Positions 3,464 to 44,900 of a stretch of DNA of 64,000 bases are shown here, piece after piece. Origin of the DNA: Candidatus Omnitrophota bacterium (GTDB lineage Bacteria > Omnitrophota > Omnitrophia > Omnitrophales > Aquincolibacteriaceae). The notes below the pieces were generated by a model that made no database searches, was not told the origin of the DNA, and worked only from the letters and a program-made list of their open reading frames with translations. Within the stretch, counting starts at the first letter, position 1; each line of letters begins with the position of its first letter. Made by a program: the position numbers and the translations under genes. The DNA is taken from positions 101,536 to 165,535 of the forward strand of contig DAOPYQ010000001.1 of NCBI GenBank assembly GCA_035352955.1. The letters are read 5' to 3'.

Positions 3464-3472
3464 AGGGTTTCG

Positions 3473-4822: not shown

Positions 4823-4823
4823 T

Positions 4824-5483: not shown

Positions 5484-6235
5484 TTGAGCTGAAATCGAAC
5501 CGGGAAATTCAGTTAATTCGGGAAGCCGGGGAGATTGCGCAGAAAGTTTTTAAAGCAGTTCAGCCGCGCGTGGTTGAAGGCGTGACCACTGACGAGCTGG
5601 ATGGTGTCGCGGAGAAAATTATCCGCGAGAACGGCGGACAGCCGGCGTTTAAGGGATATCGAGGTTTTCCGAAGACCGCCTGTATTTCGGTTAATGAGGA
5701 AGTTGTGCATGGGATCCCGGACGCAAGACGCCTCCAAGAAGGCGATATTGTTAGTTTTGATATTGGTGTGAAATTTAAAGGTTTTTTTGCGGATGCGGCA
5801 CGGACCTGGCATGTAGGCCGGGTCGGTCAGAAGGACAAAGATCTTATCCGGATCGCGAAAGAGGCTTTTGATCGCGGTCTGGATGGTTACAAACCGGGCT
5901 GGCGGATCGGGGACCTTTCCGAAACCATCCAGAAGTACATCGAGTCCCAAGGCTACCAGGTGGTTCGCGATTATGCAGGTCACGGGATTGGACGTGAGCT
6001 TCATGAAGACCCGCAGGTGCCGAATTACGGGAAGCCCGGGCGGGGCGCCAAGCTAGAACCGGGGCTTGTCCTCGCGATTGAGCCGATGGTGACCGCGGGA
6101 CATTATGCGGTTGAAACCCTCGCAAATGGCTGGACGGTGGTGACCAAGGACGGAAAAAACGCAAGCCATTACGAGGACACGGTCGCTTTTACAGAAAATG
6201 GAATTATCAATCTTACAGGGGATGAGGCTTCTTAA
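5480..6235 (+). CDS. map: Methionine aminopeptidase type I
   Basis: The 251-aa product contains conserved metal-ligand regions (FDIGV, GHGIGRELHEDP, EPMV). Its start overlaps the adk stop (ATGA). Confidence 0.95.
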   Translation: MIELKSNREIQLIREAGEIAQKVFKAVQPRVVEGVTTDELDGVAEKIIRENGGQPAFKGYRGFPKTACISVNEEVVHGIPDARRLQEGDIVSFDIGVKFKGFFADAARTWHVGRVGQKDKDLIRIAKEAFDRGLDGYKPGWRIGDLSETIQKYIESQGYQVVRDYAGHGIGRELHEDPQVPNYGKPGRGAKLEPGLVLAIEPMVTAGHYAVETLANGWTVVTKDGKNASHYEDTVAFTENGIINLTGDEAS

Positions 6236-13509: not shown

Positions 13510-14478
13510 ATGAAAAAGCTTCTTCTGGCCATTTTTATTTTTGGATCATGCCTGCCGTCCTCCCACGCGGCGGACCGGGAGCTTCTCGACCGCGTGGTCG
13601 CTGTCGTCAATGACGAGGTGATCACTCAGGCCGAATTGGATAATTTTCTCCGGCCGGTCTATGAGCAGTACAACAAGGAATATAGTGGCGAAGAACTGAT
13701 GAAGATCGTCCAAGAGGCCCGGCAGAAGATCCTCAACCAGATGATCGAGGACAAGCTGGTCTATCAGGAGGCCGTGCGCGAAGAGATCGTGGTGAAAGAC
13801 GAGGATCTGGAAAAAGAGATGGACCAGTTCAAGAGCAAGATGGAAAAGCCGGAAGAACTGGACTTGATGCTTGAAAAAGAAGGGATGACCCTGAAAGACC
13901 TGCGCGAGCGGTTGCGCAAGCAGGCCATGATCCGCCAGCTCCAGGACCGGGAGATCCGTTCGAAGGTTGTGGTTTCGCCGGCCGAGGCTGAAGATTTTTA
14001 CAAAAAAAACACCGACAAATTCCAGGTGAAAGAACGGGTCCGGGTGCGTTCGCTGACCCTCAAGAAGGGTGACGAATCCCGCCAAAAAGGCATCCCGGAT
14101 GAAGCGGTCCGCAAGAAGATCGAGGAGCTTTATCAGCAGGCCGAAGCGGGCGGAAAATTCGAGGAGATCGTCAAGCGGTTCTCCGAAGACACCCATGCGT
14201 CCCAGGAGGGTACCGGTGACTGGATCGAGCAAGGCGCGATGATCGAGTCGGTCGACAAGGCGATCTTTACGACGCCCGTGGGAAAATTGACGGGGGTGGT
14301 TGAGACGCCGATCGGGTACCATGTTTTCCGGATCGAGGAAAAACAACCCGGCAAGACCGTTCCTTTTGAAGAGGCCAAGGAGCAGATCAACAACTACCTT
14401 TTCCAGCAGAAGAGCAACGCACGTTTCCGTGATTGGATGGAAGAAATCAAAAAAGCCGCCTATATTTCGATACGGTGA
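13510..14478 (+). CDS. surA: Periplasmic chaperone / parvulin-type peptidyl-prolyl isomerase, SurA-like
   Basis: The 322-aa product has a signal peptide (MKKLLLAIFIFGSCLPSSHA), a SurA_N-like region (VAVVNDEVITQAELD) and a single parvulin domain (GYHVFRIEE). Synteny with pdxA and rsmA matches the surA-pdxA-ksgA arrangement. Confidence 0.75.
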   Translation: MKKLLLAIFIFGSCLPSSHAADRELLDRVVAVVNDEVITQAELDNFLRPVYEQYNKEYSGEELMKIVQEARQKILNQMIEDKLVYQEAVREEIVVKDEDLEKEMDQFKSKMEKPEELDLMLEKEGMTLKDLRERLRKQAMIRQLQDREIRSKVVVSPAEAEDFYKKNTDKFQVKERVRVRSLTLKKGDESRQKGIPDEAVRKKIEELYQQAEAGGKFEEIVKRFSEDTHASQEGTGDWIEQGAMIESVDKAIFTTPVGKLTGVVETPIGYHVFRIEEKQPGKTVPFEEAKEQINNYLFQQKSNARFRDWMEEIKKAAYISIR

Positions 14479-20903: not shown

Positions 20904-23900
20904 ATGGTAAAAAAAGGCGTATTCCATAGAGAGGACTGTCTCCGGAAAGTGATCGCTTTCCTGACAGTCCTTTTCTTTTTAACGACCGACCTCTTCGGGC
21001 CTAAGGCCTATGCCTTGTCTGCCGTACCCAATTCTGCACGCTCCATGTCTTCCCATGTTCAGGAGGGGAACCTCACCGGCGCTCCTTTGACCTCTGCCAA
21101 GTTTTCGAAGGTCGCCATCCCCTCCGAACATGGAACTATCCTTGAAAGATTTCAGGGAAAAACGGACCGGACCGTAGTCCTGATCCAGGATGCACACGAC
21201 GTTTCAGACGCCCAGGAGAACATCCGGGCGCTGATCGGCTATTTCCGGAAGACGTACGGGATCGGCCTTGTGGCGCTCGAAGGGGCGGCGGGACCGCTTG
21301 ATGCGCGGATCTTCCGGAGTTTTCCTGACAAGGAACTTTTGAAGAGTGTTCTCAAGGAATACCATGAAAAGGGCGAACTGACCGGCGCGGTTTCAGCGGC
21401 CATCCTGGATGAGGAGGCCGGGGATTATTTCGGGATCGAGGACTGGCAGCTTTACGAAGAAGGTCTTGCGCTCTACCGTGCGGCATCGGAAAAAGAGCCG
21501 CAGCTTTTAAAAGCCCTGAATGCCGAGAAGACGAAGAACGACGAGGCCAAGAAGAAACTTTATTCCGCGGACCTTTTTGCGATCGACCGGGGGTGGGGAA
21601 ACTTTTCCAGGGACGGGAAGGGGCTTGCCGAGCTCCTCGGGAAATTGGTTGCCGTCCGGAAACCGGCGCAGGGTTCGGGATTGGCGGCCATCGTCGAAGC
21701 TCTCGGGCAGGGATCATTCGACGGCGCCGCGCTTATTGCCGAAGTCGAAGCGCTTGCGGGGAAGGTCCGGCGCGCGCTTCAAGCGGCATCCGGCAAGGAA
21801 CAGGAAAGGTTCAAGAAGTTCAACGCGCTTTATCAGGATTTCCGCAGCTCAAGAATCACGCCGCAAGCCTTCGCTCTTGCCATGGGGCCCTGGCTTCGGG
21901 AGCACAGGGTCCCTTACAAGGCTTCCGGCGCACTTGAGAGATGGGTCCGCAACCAGAAGATGATCGAATCGATCCGCGGCCCGGAGCTTTTTGCGGAGCT
22001 CAAGGCCTATGTGGCTGAAGTGAAGACCGTTCTCATGAAAACGCCGGAGCAAAGATCGCTCGATGAACAGGGCGAAACGATCCGGATGCTGACAAACCTT
22101 GCCCGCCTCGAATTAAGTGATGAAGAATGGCGGACTTTGTGCGCAACGTCACGGGTCTCTTTGGATGATCGATTTCAGGATCACCGGAAGTTCTATGAGA
22201 ACGCGGAGAGGCGTGACGAGTGTTTTTACCGTAATCTTTCGGAGCGGATCGGTTCTCAGGGCCGAGAAGCGTCCCGGACGGCGCTTTTGGTCGCCGGGGG
22301 GTTCCACACCGAAGGGCTGACGCGCCGGTTCAGGGAGAACGGGATCTCCTATTTTCTTGTCTCGCCTCGCACCGGAGACGCCTCCCTAAAAACGAATTAC
22401 CGCGCCCATATCCGGGGCGACGTTTCCTGGAAGGACCATTTCAAGGTCGAGAATGGCCGCGTCGATCTTTACGCCGCGTTCATTCGCGCGACGCGGGATA
22501 AATTGTTGCAGACGGAACGCGGCAACCGGGGCCCGGAAGTTTTCCCTCCCGTTACTGTCCGGTTACCCTCGTTTGCGGCGAAGGAATGGCGCGATCAGAT
22601 CATTCGCGACCTGGCCCGGGAAGGGAAGATCGCCGAATCGTACCGCTATGTCCGGTTCATGGATGAAACCGCGGAAGGGAGCCGCACCTTTCCGGGGCTT
22701 GAAAAAGTCGACCGTTTTATCGAAGCGCTTCGCCGTCTGGAATCCTCCGGCGCGTTGACGCGGGAAAATATCGTCCATCTTTTAAAGCCGTCGACCATTC
22801 TTTCCGCAGCGGCCGGTAATGCGATCCTCGGCGGGATGACCGTGCCGGCGGCGTTGTTAGTCCGAGAAGGCGGTAAGCGGGACGAGAAACGGGATGAGAA
22901 GCAGGAGATCTCGGCCATGCTTCCTCCCCAAGGCGGGATTGACCTCAGCCGTTATCTATGGTTTCGGTCGCTCCGGGTGCCCGAAATGTACGGGATCCAC
23001 GGGCAGGTGAACGCGCTCAAAGTGAAGGAAGCCGAGTTTTTTGATAGTCGCGAGGACCCGGTGGGCGCGTTCCTGGCTTCAGAGGGTTTTTTGGCGCTCC
23101 CGAACGGCCGTGATCGTCGGGCCGCGCTGACGGCTTTAAGTGAGATCTGGAAAGCTATCAGCAACATCCATTTTGCCAAGGACAGAGTTGTCCGAGGCGA
23201 GAGCGCGTACGATGCGGTACGGGTCCTTGCCGAATATTTAAATCATCCGTTTATCCGGGGGATCAAGGATGATGCGGCTCGCCTTAAATCTATCGAGATC
23301 TTTCGTGAGATTTCGGTCGATACCGTCCTGGAGCTTAACAAGGAAAAGGACTGGCTCGTGAAGCTCTTGGCCGGGGCGGCAACCGCCGGGATCCGGGACG
23401 CCGGGGAAATGGAAGAGTTTTTCGAGATCCTCCACCGGATCCTGAAGAATGTTCTCTTCGATCGGGTTCGCGGCGTAAATGGTCGCGATGATTCTTTCCG
23501 GGACCTCGACGGCATTTTGCGCGATCCCGCGTTTCTCCGGCTGGAAACGTCCGGAGAGCGGAGGGAGGCCCTTGCGATGTTCAAGCGAGTTCTTCCTCTC
23601 GCGCCGCTTTCGCTTATCGGGGTTATCGAATTCAGCGGTGATAGTCGTAGCGCCAGTGTCTTTTTGAAAAGTTTCCTGGCCTCGGACCTTTTTTCGATTC
23701 TCCCGGATTCCCGGGCACGGGAGTACGGTATCGCGCTCATGTCCCGCTTGTATTTTCATAAAGATCCCGAGATCGCCGCGATTGTCAGAAATATTTTTTG
23801 GGAATTCCGCAAAGAAGATGACCGGTTGCAGGAGATTTTCCATAGAGCTATGGCGGACATCGCTTCGCGGAGCGGCCGTGTGGATATAGAACGAGTCGTT

Positions 23901-26900
23901 GACGAAGCGGCTGAAAGTATCCGTCAGATGTTTGCGCAACGTGAAGCCCGTCAGACGCGCGGGGAACAGCAGGACGCGCAACGCGCGACGCAGGGCGCGC
24001 AACGAGAAGCGGAAGGGAAGTTGTGGATTGAAACGGAAAAGCCGGGGGACGGAAAACGGATGACGGATGGAGTAAAGCCTGGTTTTTCGAAATCCGCCAT
24101 CCGTCATCCATTATCCTCCGCCGAAGGCGACGGTCGCGCTGAATTACGGGTCAATCCCGACGAATATCCCTGGTTCAAAAGTCTGGAGCCTCTTGAGAAA
24201 ATCGGAATCCGTGACCAGTTGAATGATCTCAGTGAAAAAGAGAGGAAAAACTTCCCCAAAAGTTTTGGAAGGCTCCGGCGGTTCCTGAACTCGAAGGGAT
24301 TTTCGGCACTCCGCAGCGGACGTGAGCGATGGGAGGCGATCACGGGCCTCCAGAAGTTCTGGACCCGGCTGGTTGACAATTTCGGAGATGATTATTCCCG
24401 CAGCGTTAGAGCGACGAGGTTCGGCCTGTTTTTCGAGGCTTATATGGCAAGTCCGTTCTTTATGGAAATGGAAGGTCCCGCGGAACGTTTGAAAGCCCTT
24501 GCGATCTTTCACGAGATCGATTTCGAGACAGTGAACCATCTGGACAGGTACGAAGGCGGCATCCTGGAGATTTTGAACAAGTCCGTACGCGCAGGGATCA
24601 ACACGGCGCCGGAAAAAGTCGAAGTCGTCGAGATCCTTCGGCGGAGCTTCCAGAATATTCACCAGGACAGCTACAAAGAAAACGTGGATTTAAGGGAGGT
24701 TTTGGCGATCTTTTACGAATTTCTGGATGTGCCGGCGTTTTCCTCGCTTGCGACTCCGGGAGAACGGCAGGCCGCTCTTTCCGTTCTGAAAAACGCTTAT
24801 CCTACGAAGTCCACGCGGTATTCCTCGAAAGAACATTTAAACACGATCCTGGTGACCCGCGCGGCCCTGGTTGCTTTTCTGAAATGGGACTCTTTCAGGA
24901 ATCTTTCGAATCCCCAGGCCCGTCGTTATGGGTTAGCGCTTTTCGGGCGTCTTCTTTTTCCGCCGGAGACCCTTAAACGGGGGTGGATCTGGATCCCCAA
25001 AGGTTTACTGGATACGCGGGCGGCGGTCGCTGAAATTGTCCGGGAGGCTTTCCTTCATCCCGGAAAAAGCAGCGAAGAGGTTCTTAATATTTTTCGTGAG
25101 GTGATGGAACGCATGGACCGGGAGCGGGGGCAGTTCCAGCTCAAGAAGATGGTGGTGGGGGCTGTTCGGGCAGTTCTTCAGGCGTGTGATCATATCCTGG
25201 CCCGGAAAACGCGGGGAGAGCCGCAGGACGCGCAACGCGCAACGGACAACGTACAACGAGAAGCGGAAGGGAAGTTGTGGCTTGAAACGGCAAAGCCGGA
25301 TGAGGGAGAACGGATGACGGATGGAGTAAAGCCTGGTTTTTCGACATCCGACATCCGGCATCCGCAATCCGTAAGCGAAGACGGCGGCCGCGCGGAATTG
25401 CGGGCGAAAGAGCTTATCTTTCTGCCGTCCCTGAGCGTCATTGAACGCAGATTGAAAAAGGATCCGGGGTATGCGACCGAAGCGAATTTCGAACCGTTCC
25501 GCAAGGTCCTGGCCGGGGAAGATGCGGCGTTTAACCGGTTGTTGAACGTTCTGAGATGGCTTCCCCAAAAGACGATCGACGCGGCGGAAGGCGTTTGGAG
25601 ACTTCTCATGAAAGGCGCGATCGCTTTTCTGGCCATTTCCTTGGCGGGCGGACAGATCATTGCCATCCTGCTGGGAAGTTTCGGGGACCCCGTCTTGTTT
25701 TTCTGGCTCAAGAGCATGGGGGTTGCCGGTTTGATAGCCGGGGGAGCAGCGGTTATGATCAGGATTGCCAACGTTTTGCGTGAGAGAGGGTTGCCTTCGA
25801 TCCGCAAAAACATTCACGAGGCCAGGACCGTCAAATCTTTCAAGGCGCTCCGGCTGTTCGCACGGCAGCATTCCGTTTTCCGGTCCGGAAAATATCTGGA
25901 TTATGCCGGAACGCATCTCCGCTCCAGAAGCTTTGTCGTCACAAAAGCGGCATTTGGATTTTTAGATCAGATCCACGGGTGGGGTTTTCCCCCGGCATGG
26001 TATCCGGAGCTTTTTGAGGCCCTGAAGCCGTTCTTTTCCAAAGAGTTTACGGTTGACCGGGGAGTTCTGGCCGTTCTGGATCAAGCGTCTTTCCGGAAGG
26101 ATAAGGCCGAGGCGATCGCATTTGTCCGCCAACAGCTGGAGATGATGGAAGAGCAAGAGCAGGCCAGAAAAGAAAGAGGAACGGTTCAGCCGGTGCCCGC
26201 ATCGCAACGGCGCGGTTCCGGGAACGTGGAAGGCTCCCTGTGGGAAGAAAAATCGTTCCGCGCGGAGGTGCGGGTTGTGTCACAAACTTTTGCGGATGTC
26301 GTGGCGAAGATCCGCCAAACGGGTACTTTTGGGATCAATGTGGGCCTGGGACAGCCGCGCGAATTGTTTTCTGGTCTCGCGAAACAGGCTCCCGGAGAAT
26401 TTAATGAGGCGAACCTGGGAGCGCTGATCGGGGAGATCCTCGACCATTCGGGAGCCGAAGCTGAAGCGTGGTGGACGATCCTGAAAGCCGCGGACCCTTA
26501 TTTCGCGTTGGCTGGCGCCAAGGATCCCGCTTTAAGCCCTTACAGTCCCGCGAATCTTCGCCCGGTCCTGGAACGCGCGATCACGCAGGATCCCCCCGGC
26601 AAATACGTTCTCAACCTTTTGAAACGGTTTTCCATAAGAAACCAGGCCGCCTTTGATGAAGAGAATCTGCGTCATTGCATCGATCTTTTTGATCTGGAAC
26701 GGCGAGAGTTCTTTTTCCGGGTGAAGCCGTTTTTCAGTCATCTGCTGGTCTCCGGCATCTTTTTCACCGAGACGCAGCTGGATCCTTTTCTGGATAAGGT
26801 CATTGAGTTCTTTCTGAGGAGAGAAAGGGAGGTGGATCTGAGCTCGTTCCACGGTTGGATCACGGCAGTCGCCGCGGGAGTGCCGGGCGTTGCCCTTCGG

Positions 26901-29900
26901 GCACTTAGCCTGCTCTTTGCCATTGAGGTCTTTCCGGATTTTAATGACATGAAAACATTCGCTCTGAATCTTTTCTCGATTCTTGAAAAGCGCTACGGGC
27001 CACTGGACCGGGAGGCTATGGTGGACGCGGCAGAGGATCTTTGGAACAGCATGTTCCCGGCACCGCGCGTGCGGAATTTCTGGACTACAAAAACGAAAAG
27101 CGAGTTTGAGGCATTTGACAGCCTTTTCCGGGACTTTGCGGCCTCGCTTGATGCGGCAAGGACGGCAGGAAGTGAGAAGGCTTATAAACAGGCTGTCACA
27201 CAATTCAAATTGCAGCTGCATCATTATGCGGGACAAAGGCAGGCCAGGGTTACACGGGGAGAGCCGCAGGACGCGCAACGCGCGGCACAGGGTACGCAAG
27301 GGGTAACGGAAGGGAAGTTGTGGGCGGAGAGGGCCGAAGACGGTTTGCGTTCGGAACTTCGCGTGACGCATCCTGACATTCGCGAAAGGATGCGTGGCTT
27401 GAGGCAGAAGATAGAAAACCAGGTCGGGGATACCGGAGCGTTCGGAGCTTATGTCCAACTGCTGGATTTGCCCCCTGCCGCCGCGAGGTCCCAAGTCATT
27501 GGCGATATCAGTAAAGAGCTCAAGAAACAAGCGCGAGCGATCGCGGACACGGTTACGGATCCGGACCCCAAAGTCCAGGAAACGAAACAGAAGACTTTGC
27601 TCGCGAATCTGACAGTGCTTGCGGTCCTTCAGACCATCGACCGTAACGCGAGAAAGGCGGCTTCGACGGAGCCTGCGGGCGACAAGTTCTTCGGCCTGTA
27701 TGAGCGGGAAAGTTTCGTCGAAACGGCGTTCTTCACGCACATGACGGTTTCGCTGAGCAGTTTGCTGAAGGACCTTGATCCCGACTATATCGAGGATGAA
27801 GAACTGCGGCTTTTAACTTTCAAGATCCAGACTTACTTCGGGCTGGAAGCGTTTTTTAAAAGTTCGCCGAAGGTCCATTTCCGTCCGTGGTTTAGCAAAT
27901 TCCTGCTCAATTACATTCTCCGTGAACGTCCCGAACTCGCGCAGGCCCTGTATTCTCTGAATCCGGATCAGAGCCTTGTGGGGCTTCTCGAAGACTGGTC
28001 CGTTGAATCCAAGCTCAAATTCCAGGAGTGTCCGGAGATTACGATCCTGCGGGACATCGTGAAGCGCTACCAGTTCACGTTCCGGGATTTTGTCAGCAAG
28101 AAGAGCGGCCAGCCCTTCGATGAGAACGAGGTCTCGGAACAGTACCAGGGCGACCTTGAAATGCTCATGGAAGACGAAACCGTGCGCGGGCTGATCCAAC
28201 GGGATCTCCGGGGGCTCCAGGATATCGTGACGATCATGCTGACGGAAGGCCGGATCGAAGCGGAAAAGGCCAAAAAAGAAAAGGGCGGCAAGGACGACGG
28301 GTACGGCGAAGTTCGGTACATCCTGGAACAGATCATCCCGAAGGCCCTGCCGAAGATCCGGGAGAGGCTGAATAACGCGGACCCTCTCGAGATCCTTGAT
28401 GCGATGGCGAGCATTGTGCAGGTGGCGAACGGGGAATTCTCCGCGTTGATGGGCAAGTTGCTTGGGGCGCACCCGCGGATCGGGGACAAGTATTCCCGTC
28501 TGATCGCGGGCAACGTCCAACGCCTCAAGCAGATCGGACTGATCCTTGTGGCGGTCGGCGAGACCGGATTTGACCAGATCCCGTTCGATAAACTGGTCGC
28601 ACGCTACAAGATCGTAAAAGGGAGCGACGCCGAAGGCCGGCTTCTCGAGATCATCGCGAACATCGCCCGTTCCGCGAAGGAAGGGACCGCCGGACTGATC
28701 GAAGAAACCTTCGATCTTTACAGCCAGGAGGCCGGCGAGACGTTGGACGACCTGAACAAACTGCTCCGCGCGTTCAATTATTTCGTCAGGATCGTCAATT
28801 TTCACTATGAATACGAAAAACTGGTCCTTGCCGGCGAGGTCGGCCAGATCAATAACGAAACTTATTTCGTGAGCTTGCGCGACCTCAAAAAGACCCTGCA
28901 GATCGTACGGCGCAACTTCAACGCAGGCATGGACATCAAGGAAGCTGCGGCCGATGCGGTGAAACGCCGCTATTACAACCGTCTTAGTCCCGAGGACCGC
29001 GACCGCGTGCGGGGCCTTATGATCTCTCACAGGATCATCCATCCCCACGACGAATTGAAGTTCAGTTATGAGGTCCAAGGATACGAGGTCGGCAGCCGCG
29101 AGATCGTGATCACGGAGAAACGGCCGCCGTATCAGATGCAAAAGAAGGACCGGGTGACGGGGCAGCTCTACATGGAAGAGATCCAGGTCGGGAAGCCTCG
29201 AGAGGTCATGCGTATTCAGTTTAAGGAACCGCTGGAACCCGGAGACGTCGATCCGGACATCATCTTCAACGAAACGACCTGCCGGAATCTGTCGGCGGTG
29301 CTTGAGGCGCTGGAGGTCAAAAACGGCGAAAAATTCAATCCCGTGCTGGAATTCGGGACCACGGCCGGCGGCAAAAGCACGATCGCCAAGCTCGCGGCGA
29401 AGGTCCTCAGGGTCGGTTACACCCGCATCCAGATCAACGAACGCACCGACGAGTTCGATCTGTTCGGGTCCTTTCAGCCGTTCGAGATCAACATGGAGCT
29501 GGGCGATGCGATGGAGCGGATCCGGGAAGCTCTCGATCGCGGGGAATACAACGCGCTTGAAGATGTCCTGAGCCGCATGTTGACGGGCGGAGAGGGGAAG
29601 TTCTGGGAACGGTTCTTCAGCGAAGAAGAACGCCGCGAGATCCTTGCGGGACAGGAGGGACTGGACCTTCACGAAGCCAAACGTCTGGCGATCCAGAAAC
29701 GTGTCCTCGCCCGCGTCGAAAATATCCTCGCGCAGGCGCGAGAACTTTTGCCGTTGGAACATGCGCCTGCCCAGGACCCGAAAGCGGCGGAACGGATCCA
29801 ACTCGTCAAGGCCATGGCGTATATGCTCAATCATGAAGTCGGGCTCCGTTACAAGAAAGGGCGTTTTCTCGAAGCTTACGAAAAAGGTGACCTGATCCTT

Positions 29901-32900
29901 CTTGACGAGGTTAACCTTGCGAACGAGGAAATGCTCGGCGTGCTCTACCAGCTTCTGACGATGGGGTATCTCCAGCACGGTGGCAAGGTCGTCGAACCGG
30001 CGTCCGGCCAGAAAGCCCGTATCCTGGCGACGGCGAACCCTTCAAGCTACGGCGGTCGCAACCGGATGAGCGAGGCGTTCATGAACCGGTTCGAGATCAT
30101 TTATATCGATTCGATGACCGATGAGGAAATGGCCGAGATCCTGGAAGGGACCGTTCATAAAGACCTGATCGCTTCCGGCCGGTATGCGGCGGCGGACTTC
30201 AAGAAACGGGAGGGAGAAACCCCTGCCGAGTGCCGGCAGAGGCTTGACCAGATCCTGCTGAAAGAGATCGGAGTGACACGTTACCATCTGACGCTTTTGG
30301 CCCGGGTCCAGGACAAGATCAACGGCGCGCTCCGCGGCGGGAAATTCATCGGGATGGGTGCCGACGCCGATTATGTTTTTACGATCCGCAATTATTTCAA
30401 TTTATACAAGGACCAGATGGCCCGTAAAAAGCAGGGGCAGACGCTTAGTCTCGAGACCTGGCTGCGCGAAGCCTTTATGGAATACGGGAACGTCCTGATG
30501 CGCACGAATACGTATCTCCTGAATCAGCCGGAACTTTTGAAGGAAGAAGCCTCTTACAAGACGCTTCGCAATATTTTCGGGCTCACGATCGGGGATCCGA
30601 TCCTCGACCTTCCGTCGCTTCAGCATCCGCGCGAAGGCCCTGCCGCGGCGGACGGTACCCCAACGGTGCGGTCCACCCTGCGGCCCGAAAATGCCCATGA
30701 AGCCTTTGATGAACTGGTCGCGAACTGGTTCCGCAAGATCGATTACGAATATGACCGGGCGACGCATACGCTCCGGATCGACGGGCTTACGATCACCGGC
30801 CGGACCCTCGAGGAACGGAAACTGATCGAAGAGCTTATCGAAACGGAGTCCACCAAATACAGCCAGATCGCGGTCCTGAAGGCACTGCTCCTGAACGAAC
30901 CGCTTCTGAACGTGGGCCAGTCCGGCGGAGGAAAGACCGAATCGATCGGGGATATTGTCCAGCGCCTCGGCCGCAAGTACGTCACGGTTTCCCTCGGAGA
31001 CGCGACGCTTGAAAGCCTGCTTGGGAACATGGAATGGAATCCGCGGGAAAAACGTTTTGTCTACGTTCCGGGGATCCTCGTCAAAGCGATGCAGGACGGA
31101 TCGGCGCTCGTGCTTGAGGAACTGAACATGGCGAAGTCCGGCGTGATCGAGATTCTGAACGAATATTTTGACGAAGGGACCTTCACCAATCCTTTTACGC
31201 TCGAGAAGATCAGGGTCCATTCTGATTTCCGGTTGTTCGCGACCATGAATCCTGTGCAGGGTATGACGGGGCAGAATGGCGGACGCGTGAGCCTTTCTCC
31301 GGCTCTCCGCAACCGTTTCCGCGAAGTATGGGTGCCGCACGAAAAAACGGATGCGGAAATGCGGGAGATCCTTCAGGGGCGTTTTGCTCAGAAGAATATC
31401 CAGGTCGGGGATGTTTCGATGAAGAAGATCCTCGCGTTCTTCCACGCGTATCAGGAAGCGTTCCGTTTCCGCGGCGAAGCGGCCTACTATACGAGCCCGC
31501 GCGACCTGACGCGTATCGTCCGGATCATGTCCTATCTCATCACCGTCTGCCATATGGATGAAGAAAAAGCCCTCTCCCGAGCGGTGCGGCGCGTGTACTT
31601 TGCCAAGATCGCGAAAGAGGAGGACCGGAACGATGTCCGCAAACTGATCGCCGAGGCAAAGATCCCGTCCGGCGAGATCCGGGCGCCTTCCTACCGGTTT
31701 TCCGAGGACAAACGTTTTCTTGAGGCCTACGATGGCCAGGAACTTGTCGCGCGTTTCGATGTGACCGCCCACCGGTCCCGCCTAGAAAAGATGATCGAGG
31801 ACGAGATCGGTGAAAACGATCCCGGCATTTCCGGAGAGGCGCTCCGCTCGCAAACGAAGTCCAAACTGGAACAGGCACTGAAAGAAGCGACGCTGGTTGA
31901 GAATGCGCACACGATGGAGAATCTGCTCGGGCTCATAGAGGCCGTTGCGATGGACGATCAAGATGTCCGGCAGGGAAAATTCAACCCGGTCCTTCTTCTT
32001 GGCGAAACCGCAGGAGGGAAGACCTCGCTTGTGAAATATCTTGCCGTGGCGATCCTCGGACAGGGGTACACCCGCATTCAGATCAACGAACGCACCGATG
32101 AGCTGGACCTTTTCGGTTCGTATGAACCGCGTGAAATGAAGATCGGAACGGACGATGCGGTCCGGATCGTCCAGAACGCCATCGAAGAAAAAGAGTGGGT
32201 CAAGCTCAAGAAAGCCCTGCAGATGTTGAGAAAGGGGTACGCCGGCGAGGATGAATTCGACCGGTTGCAGGATCCCGAGCGGATTTTCGAGCAGCTTGCG
32301 GCAGAGGAAACGGCCGCCCGTGAAGAGATCTTCCTGTATCTCCGGCAGGCCGTCTCGGATGACGCTGATCCCCAGAGTCGTGACGCGGCGATCCACCGGC
32401 TCAAGGTGATCGCGTATCTCGTGAAAAACGGGGCGATGAGCGTGGAAATGGAGTTCCGGGAAGGGCGGTTCCTTTCCGCCCTGAAACGCGGGGATTTTAT
32501 CGTGCTCGACGAGATCAATCTTGCGAGCGAAGAGTCGATCGCCGTCCTGTACCAGTTCCTCACGCTCGGTTTTGTGGAATATTACAACAAGGACGCCAAA
32601 GATGAGAACGGCAATCCCCACCCGCGCGTCGAGAAGATCTATCCGCCGGCGGGAATGAAACTGGCCGCGACCGCGAACCCGTCCGGTTACGGCGGCCGCA
32701 ACCGTCTCAGCGAAGCGCTCATGAACCGTTTCGAGATCCAGTACCTGCAGAACATGTCGCCGGAACAGATGAGCGAGATCATTATGGGAGAAAGCGCCCG
32801 CAAAAGCGTTTTCGCGAAAAATACGCGGTTGGCCGGCACGGTCCTGAAACTCGCCAAGCTTCAGCGGCAGATCAACTTGACCCTGGGAAGCGACGCTAAT

Positions 32901-35900
32901 CCTTTTCCGTCCGTCGGTTCGGGGCAGACGCAGGGATATCTGTTCACGCTCCGGGACCTGAAGCGGATCATGCGGAGCGCTGAAGAGATCCTTAGCCAGG
33001 GGAGCCGTTCGCCACCCGAGGCCCTGGTGGTCCAGCAGGCGTACCTGGAATATCTCGGCGTGCTCGGCCGAAGCGACGACGAAGTGAAACATCTTCTCCA
33101 GATCTTTAAATTCCCAGAATTTTTCCCGTCGTTCGATCCCGACCAGCTCAATCTCTCGTTCGAGGAAACCCGGAACGCCCGCGGCCGGAAGGTCATCCGG
33201 ATCGGCGGTTTCGAGATCGAAGAGCGCGACTATGACGGCAAAGGACCCTCGAATGAAGCGGACGTCATTGAAGCGCTTGAGGAAGGTCCGCTGACCAATT
33301 TGATCCGCATTGCGATCGTGAAAGGTCTGTTGGACCCACGAAGCCCCGTGATGGCGGTCGGCCAATCCGGCGGCGGGAAAACCGAAATGATCGGGGATGT
33401 CTGCCGGCGGCTCGGATGGAAATACCGGTCTGTGTCGCTCGGGAACGCGTCGCTTGAAAGGTTGATCGGAGGCTATGAGCGGGATCGGGAAACGAAGATC
33501 TTCCGGTATATGGTCGGCGAACTGGTTCGGGCCATGGAGGACGGCGCGGTCTTTGTGCTTGAAGAAGCCAATATGGCGAGTTCGGGGCTCGTGGAAATCC
33601 TGAACGAATATTTCGATGAGGGAACATTCACCAATCCTTTGACGGGGCGGAAGGTTGTGATCCACAAGGATTTCCGCCTGTTCGCCACGATGAATCCGGA
33701 GGTCGGTGTGACCGGGTCGAATGCCGGCCGCGTGGGATTCTCCCCGGCGCTCCGGAGCCGTTTCAAGGAGGTCTGGGTACCGCACGTCAAGACCTCCGAC
33801 GAGACAAAGCGGATCATTCGTAAAAAATTCACAAATCAGAAGATGAAGGTTTCCGACAAGACCGTTGAACAGCTTTATTCGATCTACGAGATGTTCCGAA
33901 CCTACGTGGAAGGATTCAATGATGAGACCGGTCTGTTGCATCCCGCCCGCATCGGCCAGGTGAACAACGAAGGCTACTACACCAGCTTGCGCGATATGGG
34001 AAAGATCGCGGACATCATGGTCCAGGACATGCGGCGTGGCGTTCCAGAATCCGAGGCTCTCCGCTATGCGGTCAAGCGTATCTATTATCTCCGGTTAAAT
34101 TGCGAGGAGGACCGAAAGGTCGTGCGGGAAGAGATCCTTGCCGGTCTGGACATGACGCCGATGGAATACCGATGGAGCCTGGAGGGGGCCGAGTATGTGA
34201 TCCGTCGCGGTCCGATCGAAGTGGCCCGCGTGTCCGCCGAGCTTCTCAAGAAAAAACATTTTGTCCTGACGGGTCCCGCGAAAGAAGAGATGGGTTTTCT
34301 GATCGAAGCGATGAGCCGCGGCCCCGGGTTCAAGCGGTCGTTCAATCCTGTCATGCTTTTCGGTGAAACGAGCGGTGGCAAGTCGACCATGATCGAGATC
34401 GCCGCGCACATTTTCAGGAAGAAGTTCAGACGTATCCAGATCAATCAGCGGACCGACGAATACGATCTCCTCGGAAGCTATCATCCCGTCGAGATGAAGC
34501 TCAGCCTGGCGCGCAGCCTCGAGGTCTTCCAGGAGAACCTCCGGAAGAAGAACTATTCCAAGATCGCGAAAGCGCTCCGGGTCTTGAAGAAGGACGTCCG
34601 GCTCTCGCTTCATCTTACGGAAGATGAGAAAGTGAGCGATGCCGAACTTTTCCAGCGCTTCCTCGACCAATACATCCTGCCCGGCGTGAAGCGAGAAGAC
34701 TCTACCGTCATCGAGGAGGCCCGTAAACTCGCGGTCCTGATCCATAACGGAGTGGCCGGTATCGACCTGGTCCACCAGACGGGATTTTTCCTTGAAGCCG
34801 TCGGGAACCGGGACGAAGGGATCCCGGGCCGGATCGTGCTTCTTGATGAGGTCAACCTTGCCAACGAGGAATCCATCGGGCTTCTTTACCAGATCCTCAC
34901 GCTCGGTTATATGGAATACCAGGGCAAGCGTATCTATCCCGGCGACGGCTTCCAACTCGTGACGAGCGGCAATCCGTTCACCTATTCCGGCCGCAACCGG
35001 ATGAGCGAGGCGTTCATGAACCGGTTCGAGATGCATGTGATCCCGGAGATGACGCCCCAGGAAATGGTCCAGATCCTTTGGGAAGGTTATGATCTGCAGG
35101 CCAAAGGGATCTCGCAGAACGCCTTGCAGGAGATCGTCGCCCTGCAGGTGAGGATCCATGAAGAAAGCATGAAACACTCATTCGATGGGTTCAATCTGGA
35201 CAACACTTACCGTTTCACGCTCCGCAACCTTGAGAGGATCGTCGAAGACGCACTGAAGCGGAAAACCGTCGAATCTTCCCGGAGCGCCGACGAGTGCCTC
35301 TGGGTCGAGGCCTACATCGAATACGCCGGGCTGCTGAGCCAGTCGAACGAGGATGACAACGCCGAAAAGAACAATATCGCGACGCTGAAAGGCCTTTTCC
35401 ACGACACCTTGCTCCGGGAAGGCTATGCCGTGCTGGGCAAGAAGATCGAATCGGGCAAAAAAGAAGAGCTGGAAAAACTTCTCGGCGTGCTCGGGATCCT
35501 GACTGAAAAAAAGACGGTCGACGATATGAAAGCGCAACTTAAGGAGATCCTCGCCTGGTCCCTTGGCGGCAATCTCGGGGCGACCTTGCAGGTCCTGAAG
35601 CTGGTGGAGGCCGTCACGGGCAAGCCTTATCAGCCGTGGTATCCGGACAGGGATCCGCTTTTCATGGAATTCCGGAAGATGGCCGTGACGCAGGAAGGGC
35701 AGACCGAGTGGGCCGAACTCGGAGGGGTCCGTGTCGCGAAACTTTCGGCTTCCGAGATGCTCGAAAGTTTTCTTAAAGAATTCGGGACCGATACGGAAAG
35801 CGGGCTTTTGAAAGGACCGAACGGAGAGGCCTTGGAGGCTTTCGACGGGAACAGCCAGAAGTATATCTTGCAGCAGATCCAAGGTATTGCCGTCCGCCGG

Positions 35901-38900
35901 CTTAAGCAGGAAGGCGGGAATCTCAAGGATCTGTTGCGTCAGGAGGTCCAGAAATGGATCGCCGGGCAGCTGGAAGGTTTCCGTCTGCCGCCCGGTTATA
36001 TCGAAGGGCTCTTGCGCAAACATTTTTACACGCAGGCGGAAAGGATCGAACAACTTGTCGAATTGAGATCGACCCTGATCCCGCGCATGCAGATCATGAA
36101 AGGTTTCCGCGACGGTGGCGTGGTCCAGACGGAGGACACCGAGGGCAATCCGGTCGCGATCCACAAGTCGCGCCCCGTCAATGAGATCGGGCAGTCCGGC
36201 GGAGGGAAGACCGAAATGGTCGCCGACATCGCGCGGGAACTGAACTGGCCGTACATGTCGGTCGCGCTCGGCGCCGCGACCGTGGAATCGCTCGTGGGCG
36301 AATTCGTTCTGAACGACCAGACGGGCGCTTTCGAATTCCGGAAAGGGATCCTTGTTCGCGCGATGGAAGAGGGCGCGGCGCTTGTGCTCGAGGAACTCAA
36401 TATGGCCGAGAGCGGCGTGATCGAGATCCTGAACGAATATTTCGATCGCGGGGTCATGACGATCCAGGGCCGCAAGATCTCGGTGAAGATCCACCGCAAT
36501 TTCCGCCTGTTCGCGACGATGAATCCGACGGAAGGCCGTACCGGGAAGAATGCCGGCCGGATCCCGCTTTCGCCGGCCTTGAGGAGCCGGTTCCGCGAGA
36601 CATGGGTCCGCAGCGAGCGCACGAAAGCGGAGCAGTACCGGATGGCGCTTGGAGGCATTCGCGATCTTGTGAACGGTTTGATGGAACGCGGGATCCCCGA
36701 GGAGTCCGAGGACGCCATGGGGATCCTGGAAGAAAACCTGACGCGGCAGAAGATCGCCGAAAGGTCCGGTCTCCGCAATCTTCCCAAAGGGAGGGACAGT
36801 ATCGAGGACGGGGTCACGGTCGAAGCGGTTCGCCCCGTCACGGCGCGCCCGGCCGCGCGTTCCCCGTCCGCACCTGCCGTGAGCATGGCCGCTCCGGCCG
36901 GCGAGCCTGCCGTCAAGATCCCGACCAAAGGAGAATGGGAACGGCTGCACCTGGAGGAGAGGAAAAAACTTTATGAAGACACGTTCTCGATCATTACCGG
37001 AAAAGCGGACATCAAACTGGTGGCCGGCAAGGGCTGGTCGTGGGCGCCTGCCAGTCATGTTCTGACTTACGATGAAAAAGACATTGAGAACCTGAGCCTG
37101 AATGCTCTTCTCGGCGTCGGGATCCATGAAGCCATGCACCGTATCGGGACGCGGTACCTTTCACTTTTCTGGGAGTTTTTCGACGAGCACGGAATCGAGA
37201 GCCGCGTTTTCAATACGCTCGAGGACGGGCGCATCGAGAACTGGGGGCGTTTCCTTTTCGGCGGGGCCGCCACGCCTTTACGCGCGACTAATGACGAAGT
37301 CGTGTTCGGGAAAGTAAAAGACGTGGACGAAATGGTGGAGCGGTTTGTGTTCCGCCAGAAGGACAAGGAGGGCAACGTTGTCGAACTTTCCTACACGTCC
37401 GCGATCATTAACTTTTTTCTCTATCTCGGCAAACGGGGTTCGGATGCCAACGCTCCCGAAGTCATCGAAAAGTTCCTGAAGGCTTTCGAGAAACGGGACC
37501 CGCAGCTTCGCAGGGACCTCGCGGGGCTGCTTCAGGCAGGGTATTTTGGAGGCGGGCGCGACGAGGATATCCTGAACCCGCCCAACCAGAACCGGGTGTC
37601 GGGCGTTTTCTCTAAACTTCCGATGAAAAGGAACGAATTCGGGACTTACGAGTTCGACGCCAACCCGGCGGGAACGACGGTCGAGAATCTGGCGATCGAA
37701 CAGGGGATCATCATCCGCGAATGCATCATGCCCATTGTTTATAAATGGGCCGTCAAGGATCTTGCGGACGTTCCTTCGGGAAAAGGGAAAAAAGGTAAGG
37801 GCGGAAGGGAAGTTATCCCGCGGAAATCTTCCGGGGGTGGCGGGGAAGATGACAGCGATGGGGACGACGGGGGCGAAAGCGATGGGGAGAGTGAACCCGG
37901 CCAACCGGCTGATGGATCCCCCAAGGATTTCAAGCCTGGAAAGCCGGCAAAGGGCGGTCAGCCCGTGAAGCCGATGACCCCGGCGGAGTGGAAAGCGATC
38001 TGGGACAAGCTCTCCAACGAAGACAAGAAAAAGTTGACGGACAAGATCGACAAGGGCGTCGAGCACAAGGCCCAGGACCGTACGGCCAAGGATTCCAAGG
38101 ATTACCAGAAGGCCCAGCAGGACGCCGAGATCGGAAAGCCGATGAGCGAGCGCGATCGTTTGATGGGACTCCTCGGGCGTATGATCACGGAACTTTCGGG
38201 GTACCTGCGCGACATCATCCAGAATTCCGTCCGTCCGAAAGAGATCACCGGTCTCAAGCGCGGACGTATTGACGTCCGGCGTCTGATCAACTCCATGGCG
38301 CGCGGATTCACGGACATGCGGTTCTATAAGCAGCGGATCCTTCCGCAAAAAAAGAACGTTAAGTTCACGATCATCGTGGACGAGAGCGGCAGTATGTCCG
38401 GCATGGAAGAACCCGGCAAGAAAGTCGAGATCAATACGCCCCAGAAAGGGTACCGGACGCTGATGGGCGTGACGCTTCTCATGGAGGTCCTGGAATCGCT
38501 CGGGATCGATTTCGCCGTCCGCGGTTATCACGACACGACTTGTCTCCACAAACGGTTCAAGAACCAGAGGATCCCTTCGGACAAGAAAGACCAGTACCTG
38601 GAAGCGGGGCAGGATGCCGTTCAGGACGGCTATACGACGAGGCGGGACAAGGAAAGTTTGATCGATCTTCTCCGCCAGAGCATCGGTCGCGGCGGGAACA
38701 ACGAAGGGCCGGCGCTGGAAGCCGCGATCCGGGACGCCGGGGAGGCGGGCGGTGAGCGGCACTATATTATTATCCTGACGGATGGCATGGGCGATGAAGA
38801 GGCGATCAAAAAGCATGTCGCTCAGCTCCGGCAGGCGAATGGTATGGTGAACGGGACCAAGGTGGAATTGATCGCCATCGGCCTCGGGAACGATTGCGAA

Positions 38901-41900: not shown

Positions 41901-44900
41901 AGACGCAGTGAAGTTCGCTCGGGACAGGGGGAAGAAACTCAGAAAACGATCAATTTGAAGAAAAAAGATTGGTTGGGGCGGTACGACTGGTACAAGCGGA
42001 TCTCTTCGCAGGACGAGAAGAAACGGACCGGGAACCTTGTCCGGGACGTATCCCTTGAGGTCTGGAGATATGCCAGCCGGGAGAAGCCGACCAATTTCGA
42101 TCCTCTGTGGCGGTTGCTTGGGAGCGAAGGATTCGGCCGGATTACGGATTCGAAGGAGCGGGAAGAGCTTCTGAACGTTTTTCTCAAGATCATGAAAGAG
42201 ATCTTCGAAAAACGGTATGTGGACGAAAGAGCGAATCTGGCCTTTCCCAAAGAGAATAAAGATCATGCGCTTGAAGCGTTCGCGTCATTTCTCGGCAGTT
42301 CGGCGTTCAGCCGGACCACGAATCCGAAAGAACGGTTGAGAATGCTGGGCCGTGCCCGGTCGATCCTGATGCGGTTCGCGCAGTATGAGCCGCATGACCG
42401 GACCGTCGCTTTATCAAACCTCGAAGAGTTTTTCAGGAGCAATGGTTTTAACAAGGACCTGAGCCCGGCGGAGCAGGGGAAGGTCCTTCAGCTTCTGGGG
42501 ACGCTTCCTCAATATACCCGGGGAGGCCTTGATCACGCTATTTTGGCTTTGTGGGTGATGATCGAAGGCGCGGGTTTTTCGGGGATCATGGGGTCCGGGG
42601 AGCGGATCATCGCGTTGAAGAAGTTCGGTGCTACTGCGGCCGGATTGCCGCGGTATGAAAAAGCCGGGTGGAACGATGTGACCCGCCGGGGGACGGAATG
42701 GGAGGTTTATGCGGCTTTGCGGGAATTGCTTTCCAGCGGGTATTTTAACCGGATCAAGGACTCTGCGGAACGGATAAAAGTGTTCGACGATTTTGCCGCG
42801 CTGGTCAATATCGCTGCGGTGGGTAAAGAGGAACGGCCGGACCTTGTGCTGGAGGTTTTTCGACATATTTTTCAGGGCGCCTTGTTTACAGAGACTGCAG
42901 ATCCCGGTGAACAGAGGATCGTCTGGGGAATCCTCCGGAAGCTCGCGGCGTACCGGAACGCTTACCAGGTAACGGATGATTTGGCGGATCTGCTGAACGG
43001 TGACGGGCTGAAGGCCGTGGTCCTTCGCGAAGAAAGAGCTTTGATCTGGGAGATCATTAAACCGCTCGCACAGGATGCCGAAAAAGACGGCGGTTGCAAT
43101 TTCTTCCGGGCTCTCAACACGCTGCTTTCCGGAAAAGGATTTCAACAGACGAAGGCCCCGTCCGAACGGTTGGGGGTCCTTCGTCTTGCCGGCCTGCTTT
43201 TAGATCCGGAAGATGACGAGATCGATCATAAGATGAAAGATCTGTCGGAGGCGCTGGTAGAACTTCAGGACGCATTGCAGGAGGGCGTAAGAACGGCAGA
43301 CCTTCCGGCGCTCTTGTCGGATCTTTTTGAAAATGCGGCGTACGTTCGTAGCAGGAAAGAAAAACTAGCGTTGGCGGTGAGCGCATGGCGGCAGATCATC
43401 CAGAGCGCATCTCAGGGCTTATCCCGTATCGATCGCGGGGAACCGCAGGCCGCGCAACGCGCAACGCACACCCCACAGGGGCTGGGCACAGGACGCCCTG
43501 GCGCGCAACGAGAAGAGGAAGGGAAGTTGTGGCTTGAAACGGCAAAACCGGAGGACGGAAAACGGATGACGGATGGAGTAAAGCCTGGTTTTTCGACATT
43601 CGACATCCGTCCTCCGAAATCCGTAAGCGAAGATGCCAGCCGCGCGGAGCGCAACGCGCAACGCACAACGAAAAACGGAGATTCAACGTTGACCGTTGCG
43701 CGTGCCGAGGTCCGGGGCGGGCGGATGCCAAAAGAAAAAGCTTTCGATCAAGTCAAGCGGATCGCGGCGATGTATCAAATGATGCAGTCCAGTTCGGAGA
43801 ACAAGGTTCCCGGGACCCTTTCGCCGGATAATCGCTACTATATTCCTTATCTGTCGGAGCGGGTGATCGATATCCTGACGGGGCAGGAACTTCCGCTTTC
43901 CAAACAGCTTTCATTTGCCCGTGCGAGCGAAACGGTCTTTTCGAAGGACGGGCGTTTTCTGGCCGCAGTCGATTGTTCATCCCCGCTATTTCCATTGAGA
44001 AAGCCGGGGATCGCGGAGATCTACGATCTTGAGACCCTGCAAACATCGGTCGCCCGGCTCCAGAGCAAGCCGCTACGAGAGGATGGGCGCCCCGTGTGGA
44101 TCTCCCGGGAGAACCGTTACCTGGTCGTCCACTACCTTGATTCCACCACAGAAGTATTCAGGATCGAACCCGGCGCGGCAGAACTCACGAAGGTTGAGGG
44201 CCTTGGTGAGAATGTGTATGAGATGGATATCTCAGAGGATGGTACCTGGTTTCACATGCCTTATTTTTTAAGGGACAACAAAGCGCGCTCGATCGATCTA
44301 TTGAACGGTAAGGAATATCCGGTTGCGGCGGGGCGGACAGCCGAAATCGTTCCGTGGCGGTACGGAAGCGCGGTCGTCTTCCTCCCTAAGGAACACGGAA
44401 ATCCGATGCGGCTTCTTGACCGGAAAACCGGGAAGGATATTGCCGATCAGGTCGGTCCTTATTCGGGCGTGGTTGTTCACTCGCCGGACGGCAGGAAGCT
44501 ACTTCTCCGCGGAACGGGGCATGCGCTCAACCTGGTCGTGAATGAGAACGGCGTCTGGAAGAAGACAGCGCTTGCACTGAAGACGAGATCGTCGACGGAG
44601 CCGGTCGCGGTCTTTTCGGAAGACGGGCGCCGGCTTGCCGTCGCGGACATCGAACCCGGTTTTATTCTTGTCTACGATGCGGACAAGACGGACAAAAATC
44701 CGGAGCGTTACTCGATCTGTCCGACCCCGAACGAGATCTTTTTCCCGGAGCGGATCGTTTTTGTGGCGGGGCAAAAAAGACTGCTCATAAAGATCGGCGT
44801 CAAGGGGGCCATCCGGAGCCCGCAGTGGCTGTACGCGTCTCTTTCACGGGAGAACGTCGCGTCCTCCTTTTGGATTACCGATAAAACTCATGACGGTGTT

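Follow-up and report, generated by a model that had tools for sequence, protein, structure and literature searches.

A two-helix cassette in giant Omnitrophota proteins: a possible hairpin tether that leaves the conflict between signal peptide and ATPase ring in place

Two giant genes lie in tandem on the forward (+) strand of a 64,000-nucleotide stretch of DNA from a Candidatus Omnitrophota bacterium (contig DAOPYQ010000001.1); this whole stretch is called the window, and all nucleotide (nt) positions are window coordinates. Giant gene 1 (g1, 20904-50315) is a single open reading frame (ORF) of 9,803 amino acids (aa). Giant gene 2 (g2, 50483-64000) starts with an ATG at 50483 and is cut by the window end after 4,505 aa, so that its product has at least 4,505 aa. 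Both proteins contain a cassette in which a conserved DPGYATEANF motif is followed by two apolar helices. We give an about even chance to the explanation that this cassette is an optional hairpin tether, topologically neutral, with both flanks on the side of the ATPase ring. Membrane insertion, an orientation with both ends inside (N-in/C-in) and the tether function are what we infer for it. The presence of an exported N-domain and an ATP-dependent ring on one frame is left unexplained by the cassette, and another mechanism is needed to account for it.

The initial annotation of this DNA had proposed that an odd number of membrane passes at the cassette switches the topology between an exported N-domain and a cytoplasmic ring. 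Its premises, i.e. the signal, the orientation and the ring of g1, stand, whereas the inference of a topology switch does not: two helices, an even number, are present in all three known copies of the cassette, and relatives such as L078 and L053 combine the N-domain with AAA_5 modules without a hydrophobic segment in between. An even number of passes together with a missing signal had been named as the case against the switch. The number is even and the signal peptide is real, and because of the latter the idea is not formally refuted.

The cassette comprises approximately 290 residues between two copies of a pentapeptide delimiter, R[SA]E[LVIM]R. It begins 3-9 residues past one delimiter, stops at the next, occurs once per protein and has three parts, namely a conserved juxtamembrane motif (IFLPSL...DPGYATEANFxPFRKVLxGxD), the two apolar helices and a helical domain of about 150 residues. 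In g1 the pattern count places the opening delimiter RAELR at residues 1496-1500 (25389-25403) and the closing delimiter RAEVR at residues 1786-1790 (26259-26273). Enclosed between them are the juxtamembrane motif IFLPSL..IE.RL..DPGYATEANFEPFRKVLAGEDAAF (residues 1505-1543, 25416-25532), the first putative transmembrane segment (TM-A, residues 1571-1594, 25614-25685, GAIAFLAISLAGGQIIAILLGSFG), a DP turn with the second segment (TM-B, residues 1597-1625, 25686-25778, VLFFWLKSMGVAGLIAGGAAVMIRIANVL), and a flank rich in lysine and arginine (K/R) that leads into the post-membrane helical domain (residues 1626-1775, 25779-26228). By alignment and pattern count the delimiter RAEVR (3558-3562) and the conserved motif (3571-3609) of g2 are found at 61154-61309. 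They are followed by a hairpin delineated by hydropathy (61310-61501; TM-A 3610-3643, loop LSRSEDVTGFK, TM-B 3655-3673) and by the post-membrane helical domain (3674-3835, 61502-61987), which aligns with residues 1626-1775 of g1.

The motif DPGYATEANF.PFRKVL.G.DAAF, which the initial annotation had seen in both giants, is exact in g1 and g2. It was also right that hydrophobic helices follow (25614-25778 in g1, 61310-61501 in g2). The position of about 1500 residues into the chain applies to g1, where DPGYATEANFEPFRKVLAGEDAAF starts at residue 1520 (nt 25461), and not to g2, where DPGYATEANFKPFRKVLTGKDAAF starts at residue 3586 (nt 61238). The third copy of the cassette resides around residues 2680-2985 of P0001 (identical to locus L001), a distant Omnitrophota giant of 7,699 aa, which also has a partial second copy of the post-membrane helical domain. 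In the alignment of g1, g2 and P0001, 25 out of 39 motif positions are invariant (IFLPSL..IE.RL..DP.YATE.NF.PFRKVL.G.D..F), compared to approximately 21 out of 237 elsewhere. The motif AGG in TM-B is kept in g1 and g2, and only its first glycine is invariant across the three copies. The two giants are colinear well beyond the motif, with 31% identity between g2 3060-3830 and g1 994-1784 (E 7e-76).

The three-protein alignment places two apolar helices at homologous positions in every copy. In g1 they form a stretch of about 55 residues which is broken mid-way by GSFGDP. Since this leaves no room for three spans, the "two or three" helices of the initial annotation can be narrowed down to two. 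The apolar segments count 34 and then 19 residues in g2, and 31 and then 22 in P0001. The connecting loops have 4-12 residues and are turn-forming (GSFGDP in g1, SRSEDVTG in g2, ELVSLNGHEVP in P0001). Across the three copies, K/R residues occur 3-4 times in the 15-residue N-flank, 0-2 times in the loop and 4-8 times in the 30-residue C-flank, with g1 reaching 8 in the first 30 residues of its C-flank. The loop holds 1-2 acidic residues (D/E) and is acidic or neutral. Judged from the sequences, this charge pattern is as expected for an N-in/C-in hairpin and the opposite of that of a stop-transfer TM-A. The features by which a transmembrane hairpin is recognized in a sequence, i.e. two apolar segments, a short turn-rich loop and positive-inside flanks, are all present.

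TM-A of g1 reaches a hydropathy (KD19) of 2.34 and is the sole 19-mer among the 9,803 aa with a Hessa-type sum below 2.5 (−0.29). In g2 the KD19 values are 2.02 for TM-A and 2.07 for TM-B, with Hessa-type sums of 0.26 and 0.55, while TM-B of g1 is Gly-rich and weaker (KD19 1.86). A Wimley-White octanol scan was uninformative because of its excess of positives. The AlphaFold model of the g1 cassette, with a predicted template modelling score (pTM) of 0.60, consists of two helices, 1555-1589 and 1596-1655, interrupted at LGSFGD (1590-1595). The predicted local distance difference test (pLDDT) averages 86-92 over the motif (residues 1510-1539) and 80-91 over the post-membrane domain, and the model hints that these two parts form one body.

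Several observations weigh against a membrane hairpin. The pLDDT is about 50 across the two helices, in a model that was built from a three-sequence alignment. Shuffled g1 sequences have a mean maximum KD19 of 2.18 compared to the observed 2.34, and the height of the peak lies within the shuffled range. With a Hessa-type sum of approximately +3.5, TM-B of g1 is borderline compared to the membrane-grade TM-B of g2. Furthermore, nothing strongly hydrophobic is found between the signal peptide and TM-A in g1 or g2, and following plain Sec logic 1,535 aa of g1 and 3,570 aa of g2 would be translocated, with TM-A acting as stop-transfer. As the peak height is unexceptional for such long proteins, it is conservation and context that speak for membrane helices.

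Hydropathy peaks no higher than the shuffled maxima could also mean that both helices stay outside the membrane and make up the interior of a soluble helical domain. The giants are largely made of helical repeats, and another apolar helix exists in g1 (residues 8389-8407, KD19 2.07). We nevertheless regard this as highly improbable: adjacent apolar helices of 19-35 residues, nearly uncharged, are kept across three proteins that share 31-36% identity, AlphaFold packs the flanks with confidence and the helices not, and a Gly-rich face of small residues together with flanking K/R is typical of membrane helix pairs.

The stop-transfer scenario is the one form in which the switch of the initial annotation would be viable. 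TM-A alone could span the membrane (N-out, C-in) with TM-B at the cytoplasmic interface, where it would remain because the very basic C-flank cannot cross. This would yield a membrane-spanning giant with an outer part of 1,500-3,500 aa and a cytoplasmic AAA ring. In favor of this, a canonical signal peptide is conserved, and no hydrophobic segment past it comes earlier or is stronger than TM-A. The marginal, Gly/Ala-rich TM-B of g1 and the Trp-rich TM-B of P0001 would suit an interfacial helix, and the K/R cluster past TM-B would hold the C-side in the cytoplasm. In all three copies, however, TM-A has its K/R on the N-side and an acidic or neutral C-side, which is the reverse of a stop-transfer segment. 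TM-B of g2 with its KD19 of 2.07 and Hessa-type sum of 0.55 is fully membrane-grade, and apolar residues over a length of 50 with GDP at the centre are typical of a hairpin. There are relatives with the same N-domain and ring which have no membrane helix, and homologous modules are found on either side of the cassette: pre-cassette residues 2518-2781 of g2 are homologous to post-ring residues 6086-6353 of g1 (E 2e-23), and pre-cassette residues 722-1040 of g1 to its residues 6689-6993 and 1998-2139. We therefore consider a single span unlikely.

According to the hairpin explanation, the two helices would insert with both ends in the cytoplasm, on the side where the AAA_5 ring must work, and only an acidic turn of 4-12 residues would be exposed on the far side of the membrane. 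The hairpin would tether the chain to the inner membrane and the chain would not be transferred across it. If the giant were cut at its delimiters, a fragment of about 290 residues would be tethered instead of the whole chain. Such neutrality would explain why g1 and g2 carry the cassette and close relatives lack it, as the remainder of the protein would be unaffected by the gain or loss of a neutral hairpin.

The initial annotation had described the N-termini of both giants as secretion-type, and this is borne out by a canonical Sec signal layout. The signal peptide of g1 (residues 1-37, 20904-21014) has a K/R-rich n-region, a 13-residue hydrophobic core and an AXA site with predicted cleavage after AYA. 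By the same layout that of g2 (residues 1-39, 50483-50599) is predicted to be cleaved after GFA. The basic n-region, an h-region of 10-16 residues and small residues at −3/−1, which characterize a signal peptidase I substrate of the Sec pathway, are seen in both sequences. A hydrophobic core at the N-terminus is shared by 73 out of 78 metagenomic relatives with intact 5' ends, and the K/R n-region and AXA-type sites can be read in the sequences listed. The orientation follows from L035, L036 and L057, in which an HTH_17 DNA-binding domain occupies the first ~60 residues directly before the hydrophobic segment and the N-domain (E-values 1e-13 and 4e-14 for the two sequences scanned). Because a cytoplasmic HTH_17 precedes it, the signal segment lies N-in/C-out and the N-domain outside the cytoplasm. 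The layout of these HTH_17 variants resembles that of a one-component transmembrane regulator.

The N-domain itself (g1 residues ~60-627, 21081-22784; g2 50660-52400, assigned by homology with g1) belongs to an orphan family which heads many large Omnitrophota proteins. The first ~640 residues of g1 and g2 share 40% identity. Seven database homologues were found, and the three that carry source names (P0003, P0004, P0008) are all from Omnitrophica/Omnitrophota. A further 241 metagenomic relatives, sometimes several per contig, are represented by the loci L004-L083. Multi-module proteins headed by the domain range from 1,400 to more than 4,000 aa. The domain contains the invariant motifs QDAH..AQ, EG, SFP and GGFHT, and is modeled with a pLDDT of 80-96 over residues 60-530 of g1. 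It has no match in Pfam or PDB. A likeness to the ChaN/Tiki/erythromycin-esterase fold was at chance level only (3b55 at rank 11, probability 0.18) and is not claimed.

At the tail of the N-domain a third, cryptic span (g1 632-653; g2 ~620-647) could return the chain to the cytoplasm, with the cassette following further on as a neutral hairpin. The candidate sequence in g1 is ILSAAAGNAILGGMTVPAALLV then REGGKRDEKRDEK. It would satisfy the signal peptide, the hairpin and the cytoplasmic ring together. The segment is kept in both giants (KD19 1.58 in g1 and 1.28 in g2), a dense charged cluster follows it in g1, and a clear hydrophobic segment comes after the N-domain in P0003 and P0005. The 22-residue g1 segment has, however, a hand-summed Hessa-type score of approximately +4.4 with Pro and Asn inside, which makes insertion on its own unlikely. 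AlphaFold models it as coil with a pLDDT of about 30, and the equivalent tail is not hydrophobic in L078 and P0003-P0005. We regard this solution as very unlikely.

An ATP ring had been assumed for both giants and is found in one of them. In g1 a single-chain AAA_5 ring extends over residues ~2790-5250 (29271-36653), with seven AAA_5 stretches (E 3e-77 for Pfam AAA_5, six stretches plus one more), AAA_lid_7 (E 4e-6) and dynein-lid matches. Six Walker A motifs start at residues 2818, 3338, 3700, 4153, 4487 and 5096 (29355-36200). They alternate between two types, GxTxGGKS/T at 2818, 3700 and 4487, and GQSGGGKTE at 3338, 4153 and 5096, so that the ring has the appearance of an AAA_5 pair repeated three times. 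The combination of six AAA_5 modules and a midasin-type lid on one chain, as in rings of the midasin/dynein type, is seen in g1 only. Farther downstream a weak VWA match (residues ~5911-5998, E 0.005) reaches 17.4 bits compared to a Pfam cut-off of 23.8. Pfam also finds a beta-propeller in g1. The best ring match from outside Omnitrophota is a 2,040-aa multi-AAA cockroach protein with AAA_5 and midasin AAA-lid Pfam families. The ring of g1 should need cytoplasmic ATP. For g2 no Pfam match was obtained in the visible 4,505 aa, and no ring is visible within the window.

The relatives of g1 are informative with regard to the role of the cassette. One uninterrupted frame of L078 (contig Ga0074199_1000520) encodes the N-domain, five delimiters and both the pre-ring region and the ring, which share 47% and 69% identity, respectively, with their g1 counterparts. 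In the approximately 2,100 aa that join N-domain and ring no hydrophobic segment is found (maximum KD19 1.37, lowest Hessa-type sum +7.4). The 5' end of L078 is cut off inside the N-domain, where the contig ends, which places its signal peptide outside the available sequence. The 3' part of the gene lies further along the same contig. In the 5'-complete L053 a signal peptide and the N-domain are combined with AAA_5, and no membrane helix is found in 3,000 aa. In L003, whose ring is 47-55% identical to that of g1, no hydrophobic segment was found in 2,550 aa upstream of the ring. L003 (ENA scaffold SUTE22-1...13058) is split by a stop codon into three called genes, and a different recurring junction, EEPEDEIFKAEAKSLG, lies between its HEAT-like modules.

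Other proteins with the N-domain carry Response_reg and HATPase_c (L066), M48 and ABC1 kinase (L011), HAD and RelA_SpoT, NUDIX and HD (L040), or PPDK_N and PEP-utilizers (L075). L063 carries GlnD_UR_UTase and FHA, both upstream of its sole weak hydrophobic peak at residue 2206. Most of these carriers of ATP- or nucleotide-dependent modules (L078, L053, L066, L011, L040, L075, L063) have no membrane helix at all, and the majority of the complete family members have the signal peptide alone or no hydrophobic segment above threshold. As the signal-bearing N-domain is joined to ATP-dependent modules without a helix, the family does not reconcile the two by means of membrane passes. Signal peptide and ATPase on one chain are a real, family-wide localization conflict. 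More probably than with the cassette, it has to do with the delimiters, as candidates for processing sites, or with export of the whole chain.

The delimiter is a conspicuous element of the family. A set of 77 non-redundant proteins of the family (213,561 aa) contains 351 copies of R[SA]E[LVIM]R compared to 6 expected, i.e. an approximately 58-fold enrichment, with a median spacing of 285 aa and small residues on either side. In g1 alone there are 10 copies of the slightly wider pattern R[SA]E[LVIMF]R compared to 0.4 expected (residues 1078, 1496, 1786, 2149, 6069, 6533, 7001, 7600, 8259, 8592). In g2 delimiters are located at residues 1305, 3147, 3558, 3863 and 4374, and they are also present in P0001 and L004-L083. 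No delimiter was found inside residues 2150-6068 of g1, which comprise the pre-ring region, the ring and the sequence up to the weak VWA match. The codons vary synonymously, so that the constraint acts at the protein level. A function as internal ribosome-binding site with start codon was ruled out by this synonymous variation, which includes non-start codons. On the basis of its sequence distribution the delimiter is a candidate for a module-boundary signal or a processing site. Segments resembling signal peptides, with basic residues, an apolar core and an AXA-like site, come directly after delimiters in L041 (~1300), L047 (~3385), P0004 (~690) and P0005 (~700), and hydrophobic clusters are enriched approximately 2.4- to 2.9-fold within 35 residues downstream of delimiters.

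A second recurring element is a linker of about 48-70 residues, EGKLWLETAKPEDGKRMTDGVKPGFSTSDIRHPLSSAEGGERAELR, with at least 11 copies on both sides of the cassette. By sequence recurrence, copies in g1 lie at 24012-24155, 25266-25409, 43518-43661 and 46491-46634, and copies in g2 start at 54272, 55292, 57050, 59798, 61031, 61946 and 63479. They share 72% protein and 81% DNA identity, with an identical codon at 80% of the identical residues, which suggests recent spread or gene conversion.

If the delimiters were processing sites, the conflict between signal and ATPase would disappear and the cassette would exist on its own as an N-in/C-in membrane protein with some 290 residues: cleavage at delimiters in the cytoplasm might free the N-domain for export and leave the hairpin protein behind. 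In a stronger form of this idea the whole chain would be exported as a multi-effector polyprotein and cut at the delimiters. The ATP modules would then work elsewhere, e.g. in a prey cell, the signal-bearing N-domain would mark the polyprotein class, and the DPGYATE hairpin would insert into a target membrane. The enrichment of the delimiter, its median spacing of 285 aa and its small flanking residues are arguments for this, as are the signal-only complete members which nonetheless carry ATP- or nucleotide-dependent modules. The top-ranked Foldseek matches of the cassette model are alpha-pore-forming toxins, at chance level (best E 0.56). To our knowledge, Sec export of folded ATPase arrays of several thousand residues is without precedent, which counts against export of the whole chain. 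The charges of the hairpin, positive on the inside, would suit a segment inserted from within the cytoplasm of the producing cell, and the analysis gave no evidence of cleavage, a delivery route or a prey. A predatory or parasitic life is assumed for Omnitrophota, and their giants have been proposed to be cleaved (10.1101/2023.11.21.568195, PMC10066038), West-Roberts et al. (10.1101/2023.11.21.568195) stating that the cleavage points are unknown. Taking these points together, export of the whole chain appears decidedly unlikely.

The cassette itself is rare, with g1, g2 and P0001 as its three known copies. A full HMMER scan of 1.84 billion representatives returned one cassette match, P0001, and a scan of 185,579 species genomes returned one cassette locus, L001, which is the same protein and comes from a Candidatus Omnitrophota metagenome-assembled genome (MAG). 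The P0001 sequence lacks its N-terminus, as its contig is made up wholly of the ORF. A word-indexed search of 5.8 billion proteins with the cassette as query gave no matches, nor did a scan of JGI metagenomes with the motif, and searches of Pfam, NCBIfam and PDB sequences with the cassette yielded no meaningful relative.

Within the window the two giants are located downstream of a housekeeping stretch that encodes SecY, RpoA, Mfd, a SurA-like peptidyl-prolyl isomerase (PPIase), PdxA, enolase and FtsB. The SurA-like PPIase with Rotamase_2/3 domains lies at 13510-14478, upstream of the giants. A conserved Rotamase_2 PPIase near giant genes was reported by West-Roberts et al. (10.1101/2023.11.21.568195). 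An antisense ORF of 303 aa (25005-25916, minus strand) overlaps the cassette, is without a family match and is probably spurious. The cysteine content is 0.0-0.5% in every region of g1 and g2 over their whole length. Upstream and downstream of the cassette, amino-acid and cysteine composition was uniform and gave no distinction between the two regions.

The single-chain ring of g1 is like those of Midasin/Rea1 and dynein with regard to its six AAA_5 modules, AAA_lid_7 and the dynein-lid matches. The weak VWA match downstream stays below the Pfam cut-off. Unlike these proteins, g1 is bacterial and has a signal peptide, a putative hairpin and thousands of residues of helical and propeller modules separated by delimiters. 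FtsH has two N-in/C-in membrane helices with a periplasmic domain of about 70 residues between them, forms a homohexamer and has no signal peptide. As a functional analogy only, g1 likewise has two putative membrane helices upstream of an AAA+ ATPase with both flanks cytoplasmic if the hairpin explanation is right. The loop has 4-12 residues here, and there is no relationship in sequence or fold. MARTX toxins and viral polyproteins carry arrays of enzymatic modules on one frame with short recurring junctions, the polyproteins also with internal signal sequences. The Omnitrophota family resembles them in that its modules are split by a short junction motif with signal-like segments after some junctions. 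Unlike in these systems, the delimiter is unrelated to known cleavage sites, and processing is conjectural in a family known here from its sequences.

Omnitrophota giants have been described as multi-module ORFs with an N-terminal signal peptide, internal membrane helices and AAA_5 among their domains, and their topology is acknowledged to be ambiguous, as enzymes of cytoplasmic type are predicted outside (10.1101/2023.11.21.568195; 10.64898/2026.06.07.730766; PMC10066038). The homologues of g1 and g2 that have a taxonomic label are all from Omnitrophota. The origin of L001 from a Candidatus Omnitrophota MAG, the named N-domain homologues within the phylum and the modular frames with signal or helices place g1 and g2 with such giants. 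Unlike described giants with dozens of membrane helices, g1 has two in 9,803 aa. Neither the DPGYATEANF cassette nor the R[SA]E[LVIM]R delimiter is mentioned in these three reports.

The cassette is thus a new orphan member among the membrane helices already described in Omnitrophota giants. It does not solve the open topology problem of these proteins. The comparison rather sharpens the problem, as the same exported head is joined to ATP modules without any membrane pass. The pentapeptide at the module boundaries makes the processing of the giants, and the location of their pieces, a directly testable question.

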